The position numbers and the translations under genes were made by a program. Below, one piece after another: positions 4,932 to 51,979 of a stretch of 64,000 bases of DNA. The DNA lies in the NCBI RefSeq assembly GCF_963921235.1, contig NC_086108.1:22320001-22384000 (forward strand). The letters are read 5' to 3'. The DNA comes from Mobula hypostoma. Its lineage: Eukaryota. The notes under the pieces are model-generated. The model saw nothing but the letters and a program-made list of their open reading frames with translations. It searched no databases and was not told the origin of the DNA. Within the stretch, counting starts at the first letter, position 1, and every line of letters begins with the position of its first letter.

Positions 4932-5012
4932 ATGGAGCTGCAACTGAGATGTATCTCCATATCAGCATGGAACAACATCCTCCCACTATTCTTGAAGGTC
5001 TGGAATCACAAG
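4932..5012 (+). CDS. Candidate internal exon of the TOR1AIP gene (81 nt, phase 1-1)
   Basis: Long pyrimidine tract ending ccccttttaaaAG, donor CAAG|GTATTC. Open frame DGAATEMYLHISMEQHPPTILEGLESQ; unique sequence between two CR1 copies. Confidence 0.5.
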
Positions 5013-9580: not shown

Positions 9581-9637
9581 AACCAGAGAAGACAGACTGT
9601 TCAGATGATGTTGGCTTTGACACAGTGCTCACTGCAG
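9581..9637 (+). CDS. Candidate internal exon of the TOR1AIP gene (57 nt, phase 1-1)
   Basis: Acceptor tttccttttcttgcAG, donor GCAG|GTTTAC (weak). Open frame EPEKTDCSDDVGFDTVLTA. Confidence 0.6.
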
Positions 9638-10495: not shown

Positions 10496-10558
10496 ATGGG
10501 AACCAGGCTGAAGATGACAAAGAACTTGTGGCATCACTTGAGAGTCCTGCAGATGAAG
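10496..10558 (+). CDS. Candidate internal exon of the TOR1AIP gene (63 nt, phase 1-1)
   Basis: Acceptor tctgctttcAG, donor GAAG|GTAGTA. Acidic open frame DGNQAEDDKELVASLESPADE. Confidence 0.65.
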
Positions 10559-15975: not shown

Positions 15976-16044
15976 ATGCTGTTGCAGAATCTGAGATGGA
16001 GTTTGACAGAGTACAGGACTTTTCCGGGCCAACTATGTTTTCTG
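15976..16044 (+). CDS. Candidate internal exon of the TOR1AIP gene (69 nt, phase 1-1)
   Basis: Acceptor gtccttttccAG, donor TCTG|GTATTA. Frame DAVAESEMEFDRVQDFSGPTMFS; its 3' end resembles the 90-nt repeat exons. Confidence 0.65.
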
Positions 16045-19900: not shown

Positions 19901-19990
19901 ATGCTGATTGCCATCACTTGAACAAAAGAGAGCCACAAGACTATGTTGATGCAAAACAAAGTTCACAGTTTAGTGGGCTAAATACTTTTG
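19901..19990 (+). CDS. TOR1AIP internal exon, 90-nt repeat copy 1
   Basis: Acceptor ttattttctccttgtAG, donor TTG|GTAAGT. DADCHHLNKREPQDYVDAKQSSQFSGLNTF. Confidence 0.8.
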
Positions 19991-21355
19991 GTAAGTTTGA
20001 CAAGTTAAAATTAGTTTGCACGCCTATACTTTGCACCTTTCAGATGTTTTGAGATCATTGCTGTATTTATTATTACCATGGATGTAATTTTATCTATGAG
20101 CTTCACTTATGCATGGAATTTTATTGCAACCTGGTGTATATGACAATAAACTAATCTGAGTTTGACTTGAACTTACAATTTTGAGAGTTGTACGATTTGT
20201 TACTATCTTGTACTTGAATTCTTATTTGATTTAGCAATGTTACTTGTAGATTTGGTTTGCAAAATATACTACAGTTCTCAAGTGTCTGAAGAAGTCATCT
20301 TTGATATTTCCAGAGTGGAATTAATGGAGAGAGGGGACCCCTTACTGATCACCCTTTGACAACTCACTGAATAGCAAGAGCATACAGGCCATTGCTGTGG
20401 CTTCTGCTCACTCACATTGGGGTCAAAACACGTGCTGGCACTTGCTATCAAGGCTGCCTTGTAAGTTACCACCCTGGAGGCAAATTTTTGAAGGAAAATC
20501 ATTTACAAGTTTGTGCTGCTGCCAAAAAGCAATGTGGATTTGATCCTGGCACCTTGTGTAGTTTGCCTGCTTCCAAGTGTCTGTATGGTTTCCACCTGGA
20601 GCTCTGGTTTTCTACTACACATCAAAGATGTGTTCCTAGATTAACTGGCTCCTGTAAATTACTCCCAGTATAGGAAGGTGAAAGAAAAATCAGGTGCATC
20701 GATGAGTATGTGAGGATAGGTGGAAGGGAATAAAATGGAGGAATGGCACTGACGAGTGTGCTCTCGGAGCTGGCATTAACTCAGTGGACCAAATGGTGTC
20801 TGAGTCATGAGTAGTTGTGAGAAAGTTGATCTTGCAGGAGCTAACTCATCTGGTTTAGGGTAGCTACAAGGAGATTAGTCTCAGCGTCCCTGGTTATTAA
20901 AGTTCGGGGTCATACAGGGAGTATTGTGAATATCAGGTGTGTATATGATTCGATGCATCCTTGATCTGTGGAGTCAAAAGAGCATATTGGTACTTTTAAG
21001 ATTATCTTGCAAAGGTAACTGGAGGTGTTGAAAGTGAGCCATTGGAATATACTCTATTAAAGACAGCTGCAGGAAAAAGGATTCCATCCGATGTTAATAA
21101 CAACCTGCAAATGAGCTCATTTTGGCCAAATTAAGAATAATTCTGTGCTTCAGTTATTCCCAAAACAGGGAGATGATATTACAGTCACAGATTGTAATAG
21201 TTATCAGTCTTCCAGATGGTCGCCTTTTAACAGCACAGAGAGTGATTTCAAAAGCCAAATGGAGTTTTTAGGTTGTTGAATATTTGAAAAAGTCCCTTTA
21301 AAATTCAATGTGTTGCAGTCTTTAATTTCTTCTTTCTATTTTTTCCCTTGTGTAG

Positions 21356-21445
21356 CTGATGCTCTCCCACACTCAAGCAAAAGGGAGCCCTGGGGTTTCA
21401 CTGATACAAAGCATAGTTCACAGTTAACTAGGCCAAATGCTTCTG
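21356..21445 (+). CDS. TOR1AIP internal exon, 90-nt repeat copy 2
   Basis: Acceptor ttttttcccttgtgtAG, donor CTG|GTAAGT. ADALPHSSKREPWGFTDTKHSSQLTRPNAS. Confidence 0.8.
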
Positions 21446-21757
21446 GTAAGTGGTTGAAGCAAATACAATTGCATTGTGTTTAACAGTTACAGGAGCAGGC
21501 AGGGAATGGAGGGAAATAGAACATACGCCAGCATGTGATTAGTTAGATTGGCATTGTGGTCAGCAGAGACATTATGGGACAAAGGGCCTGTTCCTGAGCT
21601 GTAATGTTCTTGGAGCAGTTGTGATCCGCTGTGTTACAGGTTGCCAGACGACTGGGACACTTTAATATTATTAAATATATTGGGAAAACACATTAAATTT
21701 TCATGTTTCGCAGTACCCCCCAATCTAATTTTCTGTTTATTTTTTTCACTTTTGTAG

Positions 21758-21847
21758 TTGGTGCCCACCAGCGCACAAGATACAGGGAGCACTGGAGTTT
21801 CACTGATACTAAACAAAGTTCACAGTTTAACAGGCCGAATGCTACTG
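21758..21847 (+). CDS. TOR1AIP internal exon, 90-nt repeat copy 3
   Basis: Acceptor tttttcacttttgtAG, donor CTG|GTAAGT. VGAHQRTRYREHWSFTDTKQSSQFNRPNAT. Confidence 0.8.
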
Positions 21848-23941
21848 GTAAGTTATAAGTATCTATTAAGCAGTGGTGCATTTGCATGGATTCTTCAGTG
21901 CTGGTATTCAAATTCTGGCTTGGTTACTTTTTGCTTTTGTATTTGGATTGCGAAATACTTCACAGTGCACAGGTATCTGGTGAATGCTATCTTTGGGCGG
22001 AGTGTAGCCAGTCAAAATCAGAGTTGATTGTTTTCAATGGACACAGTTTGGATTCTCTCACACACTGACATTTCCCAGAGTGTTTTTAGCACAACGGGAA
22101 GAAGAAACATGCTCTAGCCTTGACTTCCGGTCTGTCCCTCGATTTCAAAGTTGACAGTGGTCAACTAGCACTTAAATTCCCTGCGTTGTCCAGACTTATG
22201 TCCTCTGGAGTTTCAGCAGGTTGTGGAAGCTTAAATGAGTTTGGAATTGCTGTGTCACCTGCTGTTCCAGCAGAGGTTCAACGTACCATAAGACATAGGA
22301 ACAGAATTAGACCATTTGCCCCACCAGGTCTGTCCCACTGTTCAATCATGGCTGATTTATTTTCCCATTGTACATGGTCTGACAACATATGAAAAGTTTC
22401 AAGAGGGACAATCATACAACATAGTGCCTGTCCTGTCCTTTTTGGAAACTATTCATTGTAGAATTTTCCAACCTTGTTTAAGTTAAACATGACAAATTAA
22501 CTTTCTCAAATGCCTCTGCAAACCACCAAACCTGTATCTACTGACAATGCAATAACCAATTACACATCACCCGCAAATGGAAAAGTTGTTCAAACCTGGC
22601 AAAGTAAATCCACCATTTAATTGTTTGGAATTCTCAAGTGACTTGGCATCTAGATCATGGTCTCTTACAATTCATTGGTTTCAGTGGAAAATTATACTCT
22701 TGTAACATCACAGTCTCAGGTAAACTGGGAGTAATATCCAAGTCTAGAAAATCTGCCAACCTAGCAAAGTCCTCAGTATGCTGGATTACTGGACTTTTAC
22801 TGAGTGTCCCCTTAAAATTGTTCAGTGGACTGAGACAGGAGGGTGAAACAATGGTGCAGCCAGCAGAGCTGCTGCCTTACAGCTCCAGTGACCACACTCA
22901 GTCCTGATCTCCTGTGCTGTCTGAATCTGTGGTTCCCTTCAGGATTCTGCAGATTGGTTCATTCATTAGATGATAAGGATAAATTTCTTTTCTCTGCTGC
23001 TACTTCATTAATCATTTGTTTTCCTTTTGATATTGGGTTTTATATAACTCTGATAAAGTGATTTCTTTGTCAATTAACTTGAGAATAGTGACTCCTTTGT
23101 TTCCCAATACATATGTGAATACCCTTAGTTGAATCAGAATGGAACTCAGAATGGATTTTAAAATATTTTTTGTTACAGAAGGCTCATTAGGATGTTATAG
23201 GATATGACTGGATATCCTCTGAGGAAATGTTGTGAAGGTTATAACTCTTTGGAATTGACAAGAATGTGGGAATATCTTCTGCTGGTTTCTTAAGGGGCAA
23301 AATGAGGGAGACGCTGAGAGGATGTTTCCCACATGGGAAAGTCCAAAACCAGCAGTTGGGCTCTCAGAATAAAGAGGATCCCTATTAAAGGCAGAGATCA
23401 GGAAGAATTCCTACTTTGAGGATTGAGAGTCTTTGGAACAACTTGCACAAGAGAGTCACAAAGCCAGAATGTGTGTACAGTATATTCAAAGCTGTGATAG
23501 ACAGATTTCTTGTGATTAAGGGAATTAGTGGTCACAGGAAAAGAGACAAGGCATGAAGAGTTTCCAGTTAGCTATGACCAGGTGGATGACAAATTGGACC
23601 TCTTGGCCTCACAGTCTTATCCTGGCCTTGCACTGTATTTTGTCTTTAATTGTAACACTCGTTTTTGGGATTCTGTTATTGTATATTTTCCTGTACTGCC
23701 CTGATGCCCCAATGTGATGAAATGATCTACATGGGATAGCATGCAGAACAAAAGTTTTCACTGCTTTTTGGTACATGTGAGGATAATAAACCAATTGCCA
23801 AATTCATATAGGTGGCAGAGCAGGTTCAACAGGCTGAATGGCCTACTCCCGTTTTCACTTCTTGTGTCTTATAGATAGTGAGTTATTTGTGGAGGATGCT
23901 TTGCTATCCCTTAATTACTTTACCATTTCCTTTTTTTGAAG

Positions 23942-24031
23942 TGGTTAGTCATCAACGCTTCAGTTACACGAAGCCCCAGATTTACACTGACAGAAAGCAA
24001 AGTTCACAGTTTATCGGACCAAATGTTTCCG
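23942..24031 (+). CDS. TOR1AIP internal exon, 90-nt repeat copy 4
   Basis: Acceptor tttcctttttttgaAG, donor CCG|GTAAGT. VVSHQRFSYTKPQIYTDRKQSSQFIGPNVS. Confidence 0.8.
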
Positions 24032-33378: not shown

Positions 33379-34157
33379 GATCCAGGCTCCTTTTCTGGAA
33401 GTTTGCAATTACGCTAATTGGACTGATTGTAATTTTGAGCATCTTTGCATACTGGCATTGGACATCTGAAAGTACTGCTCATCAGTTGATAAAAGAGAGA
33501 GAGGTTTGCTTCCTCAAGAATTGGAACAAGATCCAGAACAGGTTCCCAAATCAATGTGAGGAACTATGGATACGCAGTGAGATTTTATTGAAGAATCATG
33601 CAGCCAAAGCAACACCCACTTGGCCTGCTGTACTAATATTTGCTGCTGCTCAGGATGCACAGAAAACCTTGCATTGTCTTGCACGTGAGGTCGCGGGGGC
33701 CTATGCCTCAGCCTTCAACTCTGGTGTGGTAGAAATTGATGGATCTGTACAGTACCTCAACAGCAATGAAATGAAGTTGGCCATGGACAGCCAGTTAATG
33801 TCTGAGTTTAATAAGGGAAGAAAGGCAGCAGTTATTTATCACTTTCAGGATCTGCCACTAGATTCTTCCCTTCTGTTCTACAAATACTGTGACCATGAAA
33901 ATGCAGCCTTCAAGGACATCTCCATGTTGATCACAGTGACACTGGATAATTCAACACTGAAACCAGATTTGTCTCTTAAAACCACAGAAGAAATAGTGCA
34001 CAACTTCCTCAAGAAGAAATTTTGCTCTGACACCCAGGCTGCACACCGTGAGGTGGCTGTAGACAAACTGAGTGGCCTGTGGAGCCGCATTGCCCATGTG
34101 GTGCTCCCAGTCAGGCCCGAAAATGAAATTGAAGCTAAGGGCTGTCCAGAGATTTAA
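33379..34157 (+). CDS. TOR1AIP1: Last coding exon of a torsin-1A-interacting protein (LAP1/TOR1AIP1 or LULL1/TOR1AIP2 family): TM helix plus luminal AAA+-like torsin activator domain
   Basis: Acceptor ctatctttcctcAG at 33378, phase 1. Translation GSRLLFWKFAITLIGLIVILSIFAYW (TM)...LLFYKYCDHENAAFKD...DKLSGLWSRIAHVVLPVRPE...GCPEI*. The FYKYCDHENAAFKD and LWSRI motifs are family hallmarks; the arginine finger is codon 34086-34088. The family call is firm; TOR1AIP1 versus TOR1AIP2 is inferred from exon architecture only. Confidence 0.9.
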
Positions 34158-34396
34158 AGAAATACACTTTTAGCACTACATTGCTAAAAATGTCTGGTTA
34201 GGTCAATTGTGGAGAATATTTTATAAATATTATCATAGATAGAATCTGGATCTTGTATTTTCTAGGGTTGGTGCAGAAAAATAATATATTTTGAAGCTCT
34301 GCTTATAAGAATTTGTATTATTATTACTACTGGTTTTTCTGTGTCCTCTTTAGCATATTGTTGTCACCTCTAACCCGAACTTGCGCAGCCAATTTA

Positions 34397-35992
34397 TAGT
34401 GGCATGCAAAAGTTTGGGCACCCCGGTCAAAATTTCTGTTACTGTGAATAGTTAAGTGAGTAGAAGATGAACTGATCTCCAAAAGTCATAAAGTTAAAGA
34501 TGAAACATTCTTTTCAACATTTTAAGCAAGATTAATGTATTATTTTTGTTCTGTACAATTTTAGAGTGAGAAAAAGGAGCACCATGCAAAAGTTTGGGCA
34601 CCCCAAGAGATTTGAGCTCTCAGATAACTTTTACCAAGGTCTCAGACCTTAAGTAGCTTGTTAGGGCTATGGCTTGTTCACAGTCATCGTTAGGAAGGCC
34701 AGGTAATGCAAATTTCAAAGCTATAAATACCCTGATTCCTCTAACCTTGTCCCAACAATCGGCAGCCATGGGCTCCTCTAAGCAGCTCCCTAGCAGAATG
34801 AAAATTAAAATAAATGATGCCCACAAAGCAGGAGAAGGCTATAAGAAGATAGCAAAGCGTTTTCGGGTAGCCGTTTCCTCAGTTCATAATGTAATTAAGA
34901 AATGGCAGTTAACAGGAACGGTGGAGGTCTGGAAGACCAAGAAAACTTTCCGAGAGAGCTGCTCAAAAGAGAGCTGCTAGAAAGGCAAATCAAAACCCCT
35001 GTTTGACTGCAAAAGACCTTCAGGAAGATTTAGGAGTGGTGTGCACTGTTCTACTGTGCAGCGACACCTGCACAAATATGACCTTCATGGAGGAGTCATC
35101 AGAAGAAAAAGTTCCTGCGTCCTCACCACAAGATTTAGCGTCAGAAGTTTGCAAAGGAACGTCTAAACAAGCCTGATGCATTTTGGAAACAAGTCCTGTG
35201 GACTGATGAAGTTAAAATAAAACTTTTTTGGCCGCAATGAGCAAAGGTATGTTTGGAGAAAAAAGGGTGTAGAATTTCATGAAAAGAACACCTCTCCAAC
35301 TGTTAAGCACAGGGGTGGATCGATCATGCTTTGAGCTTGTGTTGCAGCCAGTGGCACGGGGAACATTTCACTGGTAGAGAGAAGAATGAATTCAATTAAA
35401 TACCAGCAAATTCTGGAAGCAAACATCACACTGTCTGTAAAAAAGCTGAAGATGAAAAGAGGATGGCTTCTACAACAGGATAATGATCCTAAACACACCT
35501 CAAAATCCACAATGGACTACCTCAAGAGGCGCAAGCTGAAGGTTTTGCCATGGGCCTCACAGTCCCCCGACCTAAACATCATTGAAAATCTGTGGATAGA
35601 CCTCAAAAGAGCAGTGCATGCAAGACAGCCCAAGAATCTCACAGAACCAGAAGCCTTTTGCAAGGAAGAATGGGCAAATATCCCCCAAACAAGAATTGAA
35701 AGACTCTTAGCCAGCTACAGAAAGCATTTACAAGCTGTGATACTTGCCAAAGGGGGTGTTACTAAGTACTGACCATGCAGGGTGCCCAAACTTTTGCTTC
35801 AGGCCCTTTTCCTTTTTTGTTATTTTGAAACTGTACAAGTTGGAAATAAAAAAGTAACCTAGCTTAAAATATTAAAGAATTGTGTCATCTTTAACTTCAT
35901 GCCTTTTGGAAATCAGTTCATTTTTTACTCGCTTAGCTATTCACAGTAACAGAAATTTTGACCAGGGGTGCCCAAACTTTTGCATGCCACTG
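34397..35992 (+). mobile_element. Full-length decayed Tc1-like transposon (DD34E, IR/DR type)
   Basis: TA flanks; imperfect TIRs of about 210 bp, each with two copies of GCAAAAGTTTGGGCACCC. Transposase pseudogene 34768-35772: HKAGEGYKKIAKRF, GRPRKLS, VLWTDE, QQDNDPKH-34aa-E, with frameshifts and an internal stop. Confidence 0.95.
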
Positions 35993-37387
35993 TATATGAA
36001 AGATGCAATTTGAATGTTGGCTGTTGCACAACACTGTGTTATGCTGTGCGTTGCATAAAAGGAGAATCTGGCTGGATGGACTCCTGGAGCTTTCATTACT
36101 CTCACTGTTTGCTCCAACTGCCTCACCTCCAGCTATCGAACTATTAAAGTGTCTATTGTTACCGGTGGGAAAGTGAATTTTCATTCAGAGATGCATTTTC
36201 TTCAGAGCTTCAACATCTTTGTAATGAATAAACAAGTGTTTTGAGAGAATACTTTTAAAACCCTTTAGCTTTCTTTCTCTTTCATTCTAAGTGGTTAATA
36301 ATTCACCAGAGATCAGTTATTAATCCAAACTATGTGCATAGCACCACTAATGTCCATACTTTGGTGAGAATAATCTGGGAGTGGAGGGTTGAGTTAATCA
36401 GCACCTTAGTAGTATCCTGGACAAGACTGAAAAGCAAACCTATTTGTGTAACCCCTTGACTGTAGTAATTCCATGTTCCACGGTAAAATTGGAGAGAAGA
36501 TACCAGAAGAAGCTTGTTCACAGATAAATATTTGTGGGTTTGCTGGACCCAAATCTAATAAAAATCCAATTCAATTATTCCTGGTGCTATCTTGCATACT
36601 TCGATATTGTCATTGATAACCCATTCCATCAAAAGCGGCATCAACATTTTCTCAGCAAGCCGTTGGTGCTTTTATTCTGAAACCTATAGCAATGCTTTGA
36701 GTTGGGATTGTATATATTTTTATAAAGCTATTTTATGTATTTGTTACCCTGAGGAAGGTCCAAGATTTTCATCAAGTTGCATTTGATTAGAATTCATAAT
36801 AAAAGCTTGTAGGAAACTTATGATTGACATTTTGTTCCTCTTTTGAAAACAAGTTTGATGAAAACACTACTTTTTTCCAATTTTTGTAGTGGAAATTTAA
36901 GTTCACACAGTGCCCTTGATTGAAGGCTGGGAAATGAAAGGAAGTTGTAGCAGCATGGAGATAAAATTGGCTAAGCAGCAAGAAACAGTGAATGGTTGTA
37001 TATTAGATGGCGGAGAATTTGTACAGTGCAATTCTCTGCTCTCGCTCTCTCTTTCCATCTACTTATGTATATGTATCTATATCTCCAATAGGACTAGTGG
37101 ATTAGCAAATTTCTGCACAACTGTATATTATTTGAATAATGCTAAACAAATTTTAGTTTTCTTTTTAAGCTGTTGCACAGTATTATAATAAATTTCCTCG
37201 ATAAGTTTAAAGGGAATATGGGAAATGGGATGCTGGTCAGTTTAAAGACAGACACAAGCAAGACCCCTTAAAAGTTGGAAGGAGCATGGGACTTGGGCCC
37301 CTGTGAGCTGGAAAAGGACACATCAATCATTAACTAAGCCAGATACAGAACCATCAGGTTTTCTGAATGGTTGGATCAAGGACACCC

Positions 37388-49505: not shown

Positions 49506-50169
49506 GGTATCTCATTTGCTTCTTTGTCTATCACTCCTTATATATACTTGTCTTGTTATAAATTGAATTAAGGATAGACATTGAGCACTGTCTAGCAAAC
49601 GTTAGACAGATAGGAGTTGGGGTAGAATTGCGACGCATGATAAGAGTTCATTGGTAGTGTACTAACAGCCTTGGCAACTTTTTTTCATCTAAAAAATCTA
49701 TCTTATCACAGAGAGCTGTGAATCTCTTTCCTAGTGGTTATGGAGGTAAGATTACTACAGCTGCTTCAGAAACAATTTTCAAAGAATTACAGTATCAGAA
49801 AATTGAGGGCCATGGGAAACTGGTACAGAAGTTGAGGCCAGCATAGATCAGCCATGATCACATTGAATGGTGGGGCAGGCTTAGGAGCTAAGTCGCCTAG
49901 TTTTGCTGTTGCTCCAGGTTCCAGTATCTGCAGTCTCTTATGAGCTCGAGATTTACCCTTAGTCTTTAAGATAAAAGAAAACCTGTGGTTAACCGAACCT
50001 TAAAGGAAGATTATGCTGGTAACAGTCAGTCAGTTGAAAGAGACACAGAATTGTTAAAACGAATTGTATCTCTCGCCACAGATGCTGCCTGAGCATTGTT
50101 ACATTTTCTGTATTGTTATTGCCGGGGGCTCATCTGTTCCATCCTTGCACTACCCTTTCCACCCATTCG

Positions 50170-50620
50170 TTTGACACAGCATGGCCCGAGAAAGGCGCAC
50201 AGAACGCGTGAGGGGGCCGTCCAGGCTGGGAGTTACCAGAGTTACCCTGGCCATTCGGTTCGCACTGGGAGAGCCAGAACACCATGGGTGCCGTTGAAGT
50301 AAAGCGGACGGGAACCGAAGCGAGCGGCACCACCACTCCGGCCTCCCCGGTTGACTGAGCGACACTTCCGGTCGCTGGCGTCACTACCGGAAAGGGTTTC
50401 TCTTTCCCTCCGGCTGTTCGGTCCCTGCAACTGGCTGAGCCGACAAGATGAAGCCCGGCTCCCCGACCCAGGCGCGCAGAGGTGAGGACGGGCTGGAGGG
50501 TCACCGTCGGTGCCCGGGGCTGCCGTGACGTGACGTTAAGTGGAGGTGGATATGGAGTGGGTCGTGGGGGGAGAATGCAAATCAAACGCGGAAGTGGGCC
50601 TGCCGGCGAGACAGAGGGAG
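50170..50620. promoter_or_regulatory. CpG-island promoter of a second gene
   Basis: The most CpG/GC-dense unique stretch in the window. ETS/GABP sites CACTTCCGG (50363-50371), ACCGGAAA (50386-50393), CGGAAGTG (50589-50596); CRE-like TGGCGTCA (50376-50383) and GTGACGTGACGT (50525-50536). Confidence 0.8.
50390..50481 (+). other. Candidate first exon of the downstream gene (start approximate)
   Basis: Donor AGAG|GTGAGG at 50482 inside the CpG island. ATG at 50448 gives MKPGSPTQARR, either the true start or a uORF. Confidence 0.55.
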
Positions 50621-51979
50621 GGAGGGAGTGAGAGAAAAAGTAACTTGTTCTGTTGTTCCAGTGTACGTACATTGGATTAAGAGAGTTTGGTCTTATGCTC
50701 AAGTAGGGAGCTCCTAAACTGGGGACAGCCAGAATGCTGAAATCTGTTTGTGGGAAAGCAAGCCCGTGTACTTTGTTCCATTCCACTCATCTCCTGACTC
50801 CCAACTTTTAAGATTACAAGCCGAATATGGGGACTTTTGCTCACTACCTGAGCTTAATGGTTGTGCTTGAACTGCACGAACAAAATCTCATTGCACAGTT
50901 AAGGAATACAACAGATGGATGGTGCAAAAACAAAATAGACAAGGATATAAGGAAGAGAGATGAGGCTATGCAGTCTCTTCAGAAGTGTTATTCAATAAAA
51001 TGGTAGCTAATGTGATCTTAGCTCAACACTTTCCTGCCTGGTTCACCTAACCTTCGACAGTTGTGTTGTTCAAGCAACTTTTTATCTCATGCTTGAATAT
51101 ATTTAGAGATTTAGTTCTCTGGGTAGAAAATCCCAACGGTTAATGATTATCTGAGAAAAAGGTCCTTCTCATCCTTGTTTCACAGCCTGATAGCGAAACA
51201 CCAATGCTCTTAAATGGAAAATCCTCCAAAAAGTAGTTACGGCCCAGTCTATCATGAGTAAAGCCCTCCACTGTTGCTCACTGTTGCTACACAAAGTGTT
51301 ATCGCGAGAAAGCAGTATCCATCATCAGGGACCATCACCACCCAGGACAAGTTCTCATTGCATATAAATTCCCTGTCCTTGGAGCCTAAACCGATGTATT
51401 ATCAGAAAATCTAGTATCAGTCTGTTCTACAGCTAGAGAGATTCAGTGTACAAGTAATGCGGGGGATCATCAGGAGTACAAGAGGTTTCTCTTTTAATGT
51501 TAACCTTTTGAAACTGATCAGCAAACAAGATTTAAATCAGAACTGTGGCATTGGGACCAAGTCCAAGCCTTTGAAGTTTACAACAAAGTATTCTGTCATC
51601 CACGGTATCTGGAGATATTTATTTGGTGCAGTAATGTTACAACCACACCTCAACAGATCAGCAAAACAGTGTCAATGCATTTTTACATAGGAAGAAGAAT
51701 ATATGTCCAAAGTCCTTGAGCTAAAGTTATAACTGCTGCAGCAGGAATTGATTTTAAAACCAGAATTAAAAGAAAAAAAAACTGGAAAGAGAGAAAGAAT
51801 TTGTGTTTGTGGCAAAGCTAGTTTTTAGAAGGAAGTAGCAATGGTGAGCTGTGTACTTTCTGTGTGAGTGCCTTTCTATAAAACAGCTTGAAAGCCACCT
51901 TTCAGAGTTGAATGTCTGCTATTTTACTGAAAAGCAAAGCATCCAGATTCAGGAAACCTGAAATAAAACAGAACATGCT

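Follow-up and report, generated by a model that had tools for sequence, protein, structure and literature searches.

Gene content and family placement

The window analysed here is a 64,000-nt stretch of the genome of the ray Mobula hypostoma (contig NC_086108.1, positions 22,320,001 to 22,384,000), within a locus that carries three tandem LAP1_C genes, designated A, B, and C. Four repeat exons (r1–r4) belong to the middle gene, B, and precede its last coding exon (Table 1). In LAP1 and LULL1, the luminal domain stimulates torsin ATPases through an arginine finger, and the arm lies on the opposite side of the ER/nuclear membrane.

Table 1. Exons of gene B located in the window (P0121, RefSeq model of gene B)
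Feature	Position	Strand	Evidence or remark
Arm exon a, 81 nt, phase 1-1	4932..5012	+	P0121 tblastn 100%; splice sites
Arm exon b, 57 nt, phase 1-1	9581..9637	+	P0121 tblastn; splice sites
Arm exon c, 63 nt, phase 1-1	10496..10558	+	P0121 tblastn; splice sites
Arm exon d, 69 nt, phase 1-1	15976..16044	+	P0121 tblastn; splice sites; RNA depth
Repeat exon r1, 90 nt, 30 aa	19901..19990	+	30/30 match to P0121 residues 393-422
Repeat exon r2, 90 nt, 30 aa	21356..21445	+	P0121 residues 423-452
Repeat exon r3, 90 nt, 30 aa	21758..21847	+	P0121 residues 453-482
Repeat exon r4, 90 nt, 30 aa	23942..24031	+	Final exon upstream of membrane anchor; missing from Hypanus isoform P0003
Last coding exon: transmembrane helix and luminal LAP1_C domain	33379..34157	+	Pfam, PDB matches, AlphaFold2

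The last coding exon matches the LAP1_C family (PF05609) with an E value of 2e-71 (score 240 bits, cut-off 26.8), as well as the PDB chains 5J1S_B (E 1e-56) and 4TVS_A (E 1e-54). The arginine of a WSRI motif in gene B aligns to position 211 of 231 in chain 4TVS_A, which corresponds to R563, the LAP1 arginine finger, if the chain ends at residue 583; the LAP1 construct in 4TVS spans residues 356–583, according to PMC4358337. The conserved cysteines are likewise found in gene B, in helix 1, in a YKYC motif, and at the C terminus. AlphaFold2 models the hydrophobic stretch that opens the exon as a helix from residue 515, and most of the arm has a pLDDT below 50; gene B thus has a single transmembrane helix following a predicted disordered N-terminal arm. 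No RVxF-like PP1 motif was found in this arm, and basic clusters in its first exons could serve as nuclear signals.

The earlier note had assigned the repeats to a LAP1/TOR1AIP protein. Membership of the TOR1AIP family is borne out by the Pfam and PDB matches; the identity as LAP1, however, is not. In a tree of 33 luminal domains (LG+G4, no outgroup), the approximately unbiased (AU) test rejected a clade of gene B with tetrapod LAP1 (p = 0.0007) and with tetrapod LULL1 (p = 0.000075), gene conversion being a process that could blur orthology here. Judged by these sequences, gene B is a one-to-one orthologue of neither and is one of three elasmobranch-specific torsin-activator paralogues, set apart from all bony-vertebrate LAP1 and LULL1. 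Since gene B falls outside both clades, the placing of its arm on the nucleoplasmic side, facing lamina and chromatin, is putative.

The four repeat exons

The coordinates, the common length, the 1-1 phase, and the G/GTAAGT donors reported for r1–r4 were all reproduced, and the acceptors consist of a pyrimidine tract followed by AG. The four peptides also read as described once the G contributed by the preceding exon is counted, with D17, K19, S21, S22, Q23, and N28 invariant, phenylalanine or tyrosine at position 15, and 16 residues in common between copies 2 and 3. Pairwise nucleotide identity amounts to 52–69 of 90 positions (58%–77%), and the similarity among the copies is far above chance. 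A DNA profile derived from r1–r4 scores those same exons at E values of 1e-35 to 1e-41 (a circular result), the next site in the 64 kb scoring E 4.1, and no fifth copy of the 90-nt unit was found in approximately 184 kb of the locus.

Phase 1-1 is not peculiar to the repeats: exons a–d, bounded by AG and GT, have it too, and their lengths are multiples of three. All four repeat exons carry the full GTAAGT donor, which is absent from exons a–d. Because all arm exons are symmetric, duplication of any one of them preserves the reading frame, and r1–r4 are adjacent homologous exons of identical symmetric phase, as is characteristic of tandemly duplicated symmetric exons. The best explanation, and a probable one, is that r1–r4 are tandem copies of one exon, likely spliced together, which add 120 residues ahead of the membrane anchor and probably serve as a spacer under loose constraint.

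Splicing and transcripts

The joining of r1–r4 to the last coding exon, for which the earlier note had proposed a search in transcripts, is already present in RefSeq model P0121. All four copies occur in series in 20 of the 21 ray and skate proteins that include the arm, among them all four (4/4) of the Logan transcript-derived proteins; serial inclusion is therefore directly seen in skate transcript contigs and in gene models. For Mobula itself, it is derived by arithmetic from contig ends in three informative same-organism runs (X1–X3), which are presumed to be RNA—none is recorded as such—and which have near-zero depth in intron bins. Three contigs from these runs would end 3–4 nt beyond an exon boundary only with all four copies included. 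By the same arithmetic, the contigs are unbroken across r1–r4 and are interrupted at exon a and farther upstream, with the proviso that contigs lose rare isoforms. RNA depth in the bin of exon d fits a single 69-nt exon of the contig.

These data bear on two other readings of the array. Mutually exclusive splicing, as the earlier note envisaged, or a dispersed repeat foreign to the gene, is exceedingly improbable: homologous exons of equal length and phase would suit the former, and the occurrence of related units on a second contig the latter, but serial inclusion in 20 of 21 proteins and contig ends that fit four-copy inclusion alone contradict exclusivity. The units on the second contig (C90) prove, moreover, to be an intronless copy of gene B's own exons, a, c, and d included, and genome searches gave no further noteworthy site beyond gene B and C90 among the matches listed.

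A regulated cassette array, in which the skipping of copies sets the length or valency of the arm by tissue, is very unlikely. One Hypanus isoform (P0003) lacks copy 4 whereas another (P0123) retains it, the isoform sets of sharks vary in arm length, and in mammalian LAP1 some transcripts lack arm exons through skipping (PMC4252041). The idea of an adjustable arm is thus favoured slightly by a single ray isoform, but it is opposed by the four-copy series in nearly all ray and skate proteins, by contigs that run unbroken over r1–r4, and by the full GTAAGT donors that distinguish these exons from a–d. Exon a is, by comparison, likely to be an alternative cassette: it is skipped in the skate isoform P0125, and two RNA contigs start 3 nt inside its 3′ end.

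Distribution and history

Four copies are present in all eight (8/8) ray and skate orthologues that have the last exon of gene B, and 13 sharks carry two to four copies of the 30-mer, in part through separate expansions. A scan of chimaera and bony-vertebrate proteins did not find the 30-mer, so the view of it as a lineage-specific expansion holds for elasmobranchs. A profile search of 1.84 billion representative sequences returned five matches with E ≤ 0.001, comprising three elasmobranch orthologues and two unrelated repetitive proteins; a search with the whole repeat region recovered five proteins among 30 candidates, every one from a ray or skate.

A related 30-mer is thus common to sharks and rays. 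The tree and the best matches suggest that the unit had reached four copies by the time skates and stingrays diverged, with independent copying in several shark lineages; on this sequence evidence, the four copies are old. The intronless copy on C90 holds eight 30-mer units. Set against these eight, the constant four of rays and skates may reflect selection on arm length.

Growth of the arm is not confined to this unit. A diagonal scan detected unrelated internal arm repeats in 18 of 21 chondrichthyan proteins (A, B, and chimaera), including units of 36–110 aa in paralogue A, a 21-aa exon in gene B of sharks, and an 8-aa repeat in chimaera; the same scan detected none in seven paralogue C proteins (0/7). 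No similarity was detected between the 30-mer and these other units.

Structure and constraint

AlphaFold2 assigns residues 393–512, which correspond to the repeats, a pLDDT of 25–32 and no secondary structure, and the ESM Atlas yielded no usable fold or feature match for them; the repeats are accordingly predicted to be disordered. Disorder is compatible with binding, since residues 184–337 of human LAP1B, the part of its arm nearest the membrane, are disordered and yet bind the lamina (PMC7773337). N-glycosylation sequons at the ends of the units were considered as a separate candidate and rejected because of their extraluminal position and their loss from many orthologous units.

Across eight ray and skate orthologues, tree length per site is 0.89 for the repeats, 0.70 for the other arm exons, and 0.66 for the luminal domain; identity to skates is correspondingly 56%–59%, 61%–62%, and 68%–70%. 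Two comparisons were counted against the spacer interpretation, namely those with closer rays (repeats 92%–93%, luminal domain 88%–89%) and with sawfish (78% and 73%). Among 33 batoid units, no significant rate variation among sites was found (lnL gain 0.8, alpha 9), the luminal domain having an alpha of 1.0. Between copies, pN/pS is 0.67, and tests on 29 codons, which have little power, did not reject an omega of 1 (P 0.12–0.28) but rejected an omega of 0.3 or less (P ≤ 0.006). Six invariant residues compare with 4.5 expected under neutrality (P 0.29), a number that shared ancestry leads one to expect. Relative to their flanks, the repeats therefore exhibit neither slower evolution nor site-specific constraint, apart from a residual clustering signal at S-S-Q: r1–r4 share an identical 11-nt run over these codons (P ~0.004, a statistic picked post hoc and counted against a spacer).

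The earlier note took the repeats for a selected binding module and the preserved length, frame, and splice sites as a sign of selection. The first proposal fares poorly given predicted disorder, an evolutionary rate no lower than that of the remaining arm, the pN/pS value, and invariant residues within neutral expectation. The second loses its force because frame and splice sites are kept by any exon that is spliced in ahead of a domain the protein requires; nor is length fully kept, copy 1 of skates being shorter by three residues.

One alternative that retains the binding idea is a multivalent array of short motifs, in which each unit contributes one weak site (D-x-K-x-S-S-Q-F) that may be an S-Q phosphosite of the ATM/ATR type and adds avidity for the lamina, chromatin, or another extraluminal partner. 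It is considered unlikely. The S-Q pair is the consensus of ATM/ATR-type kinases, and an S/T-Q cluster domain is defined by at least three S/T-Q per 100 residues, conserved and phosphorylated; all four S-Q pairs of the gene B repeats fall within approximately 92 residues. Five of the invariant residues lie inside seven positions in the second half of the unit (P 0.016 under neutrality, 0.09 at an omega of 0.5), and of 24 batoid units, 22 retain D17, 23 retain K19, and 20 retain the S-Q pair. The repeat region is also net basic and rich in aromatic residues (16 K/R, 11 D/E, 13 aromatic), whereas the remaining arm is acidic, and avidity of several disordered regions keeps human LAP1B at the inner nuclear membrane (PMC7773337). 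On the other side stand the lack of significant rate variation among sites, the faster overall evolution of the repeats than of the remaining arm, and the shark units, only one of which in 24 has S/T-Q at that position (by eye). Gene B, furthermore, is not the LAP1 orthologue, and its nuclear localisation is putative.

A broader proposal treats the three tandem genes as one combinatorial locus, in which upstream phase-1 arm exons would be spliced to a downstream membrane and luminal exon, and the 30-mer array would act as a transferable multivalent S-Q phospho-module that re-targets torsin activators to lamina or chromatin. Gene models of this kind exist, joining the A arm to B in six species and the B arm with its 30-mers to C in two; as a whole, the proposal is regarded as quite unlikely. 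If true, it would make elasmobranchs a natural mix-and-match experiment on the function of torsin-activator arms, a question of the LAP1 and dystonia field.

The spacer interpretation thus remains the likelier account of r1–r4 than a selected binding module, and as exon duplications go this one is fairly unremarkable. Selection would maintain an open frame and splicing for the sake of the downstream activator domain while hardly constraining the residues themselves; by analogy, the luminal domain would activate a torsin ATPase through its arginine finger, with the arm and its repeats serving as a flexible tether on the opposite side of the ER or nuclear membrane. So read, the repeats matter little in themselves, being a clean example of the growth of a disordered arm via symmetric exon duplication, for which the eight-unit intronless copy supplies a neutral comparator. 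Elasmobranchs have their own set of three torsin activators, and LAP1 or LULL1 labels for these need a tree first.

Comparison with known systems

The four exons are real and already present in public gene models; they are undescribed in the literature searched, which covered subscription journals thinly and gave no account of these repeats, or of chondrichthyan LAP1, LULL1, or torsin, among the matches listed. Gene B resembles LAP1 (TOR1AIP1) and LULL1 (TOR1AIP2; PF05609, PDB 4TVS and 5J1S) in its small symmetric arm exons, disordered arm, single transmembrane helix, AAA+-like luminal domain, arginine finger, and conserved cysteines; exons 2–9 of human TOR1AIP1 are likewise all multiples of three (PMC4252041, Table S1). 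Unlike the bony-vertebrate proteins, it sits on a separate branch, carries a 30-mer not found in those scanned, and has no RVxF-like PP1 motif; mammalian members have PF20443, which is absent from the precomputed domains of gene B. The other chondrichthyan TOR1AIP arm repeats represent the same recurrent expansion of the extraluminal arm in the same cluster, but with different units.

Tandem duplication is a frequent origin of symmetric disordered exons (Schad et al. 2013, PMC3632108). The exons in that class share one symmetric phase, are predicted to be disordered, and lie next to homologous exons to give a protein repeat. In kind, r1–r4 do not differ from this class; the copies are ancient, have held a stable position in rays, and stem from an exon that expanded separately in several sharks.

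The repeat exons and their gene

The four repeat exons r1–r4, each encoding one 30-residue unit, are a genuine array within a gene that public models already annotate, and their positions, 90-nt length, splice sites and frame are all as the earlier note described. Each follows a pyrimidine-rich acceptor that ends in AG and closes with a G|GTAAGT donor; pairs share 52–69 of 90 nt and 10–16 of 29 residues, with D17, K19, S21, S22, Q23, and N28 invariant across the four copies. A four-copy profile found no fifth copy in the 64-kb window (next-best site, E 4.1) and no further copy across approximately 184 kb of the locus. No description of the array was found in the published literature searched.

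Coordinates of the gene cluster, the repeat exons, and the intronless copy
Feature	Position	Strand	Remark
Genes A, B, C	G000:C50:22242660-22399285		window 4932-34157 is part of B
First coding exon, gene B	near C50:22301880		upstream of window
Repeat exon r1	19901-19990	+	90 nt, open in frame
Repeat exon r2	21356-21445	+	90 nt, open in frame
Repeat exon r3	21758-21847	+	90 nt, open in frame
Repeat exon r4	23942-24031	+	90 nt, open in frame
Decayed intronless gene-B arm copy	L008:7540-9716 and L009:424-573 (G000:C90, about 1199500-1202570)		eight 90-nt units
G000, genome; C50, contig carrying the window; C90, another contig; L008 and L009, stretches of genome DNA.

Exon 33379–34157 encodes the transmembrane helix and LAP1_C domain of gene B. 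Its product is homologous to the solved luminal domains of LAP1 and LULL1, with the arginine-finger residue and cysteines present (LAP1/LULL1 background, PMC4358337). P0121, the Mobula hypostoma RefSeq model named torsin-1A-interacting protein 2-like, matches the window exons part for part and already splices r1-r2-r3-r4 directly to exon 33379, the junction that the earlier note had proposed. Besides r1–r4, the arm—the extraluminal part before the helix—comprises exons a–d (81, 57, 63, and 69 nt) within the window and four more upstream. Exons a–d are symmetric (phase 1-1) like r1–r4, and every one of human TOR1AIP1 exons 2–9 has a length divisible by three (PMC4252041 supplementary Table S1). 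Symmetric phase thus characterizes the family and is no mark peculiar to the repeats.

Two upstream arm exons of 48 and 54 nt (L017:6493-6541 and L018:7796-7846 on two further stretches of genome DNA) resemble an older duplicate pair, and a similar exon is repeated at a 21-residue period in several sharks. Downstream, a Tc1/mariner-like transposon remnant with inverted ends (34392–36000) starts approximately 235 nt past the gene-B stop codon, and RNA contigs extend at least to its edge. It holds an open frame (35335–35769) that we take to be transposase-like.

Three tandem paralogues

LAP1_C exons occur three times in the genome, tandemly arranged on a single strand (A, C50:22264884; B, 22353378; C, 22398560). 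In a luminal-domain tree of 33 rows, built without an outgroup and open to gene conversion, A, B, and C each form a strongly supported shark and ray clade, and bony-vertebrate LAP1 and LULL1 share a separate branch (support 85/94). The same tree rejects a clade of B with LAP1 (AU p 0.0007), so the gene is not the one-to-one orthologue of LAP1, and equally one with LULL1 (AU p 0.000075). Because B groups with neither, 'nucleoplasmic' is an extrapolation for its arm, although the arm begins with basic clusters.

In rays, branches for the gene-B luminal domain (33379–34157) are about twice as long as those for A and C, which suggests that the gene as a whole has evolved under relaxed constraint or adaptively. 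Two Callorhinchus milii chimaera paralogues, P0025 and P0168, are almost identical in central luminal sequence and differ at the ends. The transmembrane segment of P0168 starts as in B, and its arm contains an 8-residue repeat; gene conversion could possibly explain this pattern.

RefSeq models place A-arm exons onto gene B in six species (P0121, P0001, P0122, the Hypanus isoforms P0003/P0123, P0017, and P0022) and B-arm exons onto gene C in two (P0038 and P0171). These predicted joins may reflect read-through or annotation, and they could stay in frame because every gene-B arm exon checked has phase 1. The gene-C arm lacks repeats. At 50001–51000 lie a CpG island and a short exon (+ strand ATG near 50450) whose translation matches the start of the gene-C protein P0175; these are probably this third paralogue's promoter and first exon.

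Splicing of the repeats

Among the joints of the RNA contigs, which transposon matches dominated, no direct junction reads for r1–r4 were seen; the path through them comes from contig-end arithmetic. Contigs over the last exon from three same-organism sequencing runs, all matching the window exactly, reach 634 (X1) and 552 letters (X2, X3) ahead of exon 33379. Summed backward with all four repeats, their ends fall 4 (X1) and 3 nt (X2, X3) beyond an exon boundary, as against 12–154 nt off with three or fewer. Overhangs of 3 and 4 nt are endings common to alternative upstream exons, as expected for an assembly branch, and a skate isoform does skip exon a. The assembled path thus appears to run unbroken through all four repeats, in contigs of a kind that lose rare isoforms.

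The mutually exclusive cassettes envisaged in the earlier note are ruled out: four units lie in series in 20 of 21 arm-bearing ray and skate gene-B proteins (two partial proteins without the arm omitted, one cluster member unlisted), among them all 4 from Logan contigs of 2.0–2.4 kb. Repeat exons may occasionally be skipped, as r4 is in one Hypanus isoform (P0003). A regulated cassette array is a very improbable reading. P0131 (Amblyraja isoform X5) lacks the transmembrane exon, stopping right behind repeat 4, and would yield a soluble arm-only protein.

Origin of the units and the intronless copy

An iterated profile, whose counts are circular for its training species, found four units in all 8 ray and skate orthologues having the B last exon, 2–4 in 13/13 sharks, and a single unit in the model of an electric ray. 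None turned up in three chimaera proteins or the bony-vertebrate proteins among 284 scanned, and database searches placed the unit in elasmobranch orthologues only; the expansion is thus lineage specific, as first proposed. In 93 of 120 comparisons, the best match of a ray unit was the unit at the corresponding position of another species. In a unit tree resting on 29 columns, and hence weak, units 1 and 4 cluster by position and units 2 and 3 are badly resolved; units from Heptranchias, like those from Heterodontus, group within the species, and those of two Scyliorhinus species within the genus. Position matches and grouping together argue for four copies older than the skate–stingray split and for separate expansion of the exon in several sharks. 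Unrelated arm repeats (8 to 121 residues) occur in 18/21 chondrichthyan A, B, and chimaera arms, 0/7 C arms, and 7/89 bony-vertebrate arms.

The only other genomic site found, by searches that give lower bounds, is on C90. At this site, exons a, c, and d of the arm are joined without introns; an insertion follows, then part of r1, then r2, then six hybrid units, each nearest r3 in its 5′ half and r2 in its 3′ half. LINE sequence splits one unit, stops and frameshifts are present, and the 50 kb examined yielded no r4 and no last exon. This site is a decayed processed copy of gene B itself; a dispersed repeat is rejected. Its units are approximately 72%–85% identical to the gene-derived halves and, where intact, approximately 60%–75% to one another, levels that would fit a copying burst near the time of insertion, via slippage or unequal crossover.

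Constraint on the repeats

The earlier note proposed a selected binding module, a claim that the following results do not support. AlphaFold2 with 23 orthologues leaves the repeats without structure (pLDDT ~27). Across eight ray and skate orthologues their tree length per site is 0.89; the other arm exons reach 0.70 and the luminal domain 0.66. Rate variation among sites is not significant across 33 units. Comparison of the four copies with one another gives a pN/pS of 0.67; omega of 1 is not rejected (P 0.12–0.28), and omega of 0.3 or less is. Six invariant residues compare with a neutral mean of 4.5 (P 0.29), as expected from ancestry alone. Of the conserved length, frame, and splice sites, 90 nt, an open frame, and GTAAGT hold in all four window copies, but copy 1 of the skates is missing three residues. 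The array is thus probably a loosely constrained spacer.

Several observations count against a spacer. Conservation of the repeats slightly exceeds that of the luminal domain in stingrays and the sawfish; the 11 nt that cover S-S-Q do not vary (P about 0.004, a statistic chosen post hoc); five invariant residues fall within seven positions (P 0.016); S-Q is present in 20 of 24 ray units; and copy number is constant at four. The membrane-proximal arm of human LAP1B, moreover, is disordered yet binds lamina (PMC7773337 section 6). Given these points, an array of weak multivalent or phospho-motifs, unlikely as it is, or a splicing element might be present. The r1–r4 array fits a known route, described in PMC3632108, by which disordered regions grow through the duplication of symmetric exons.
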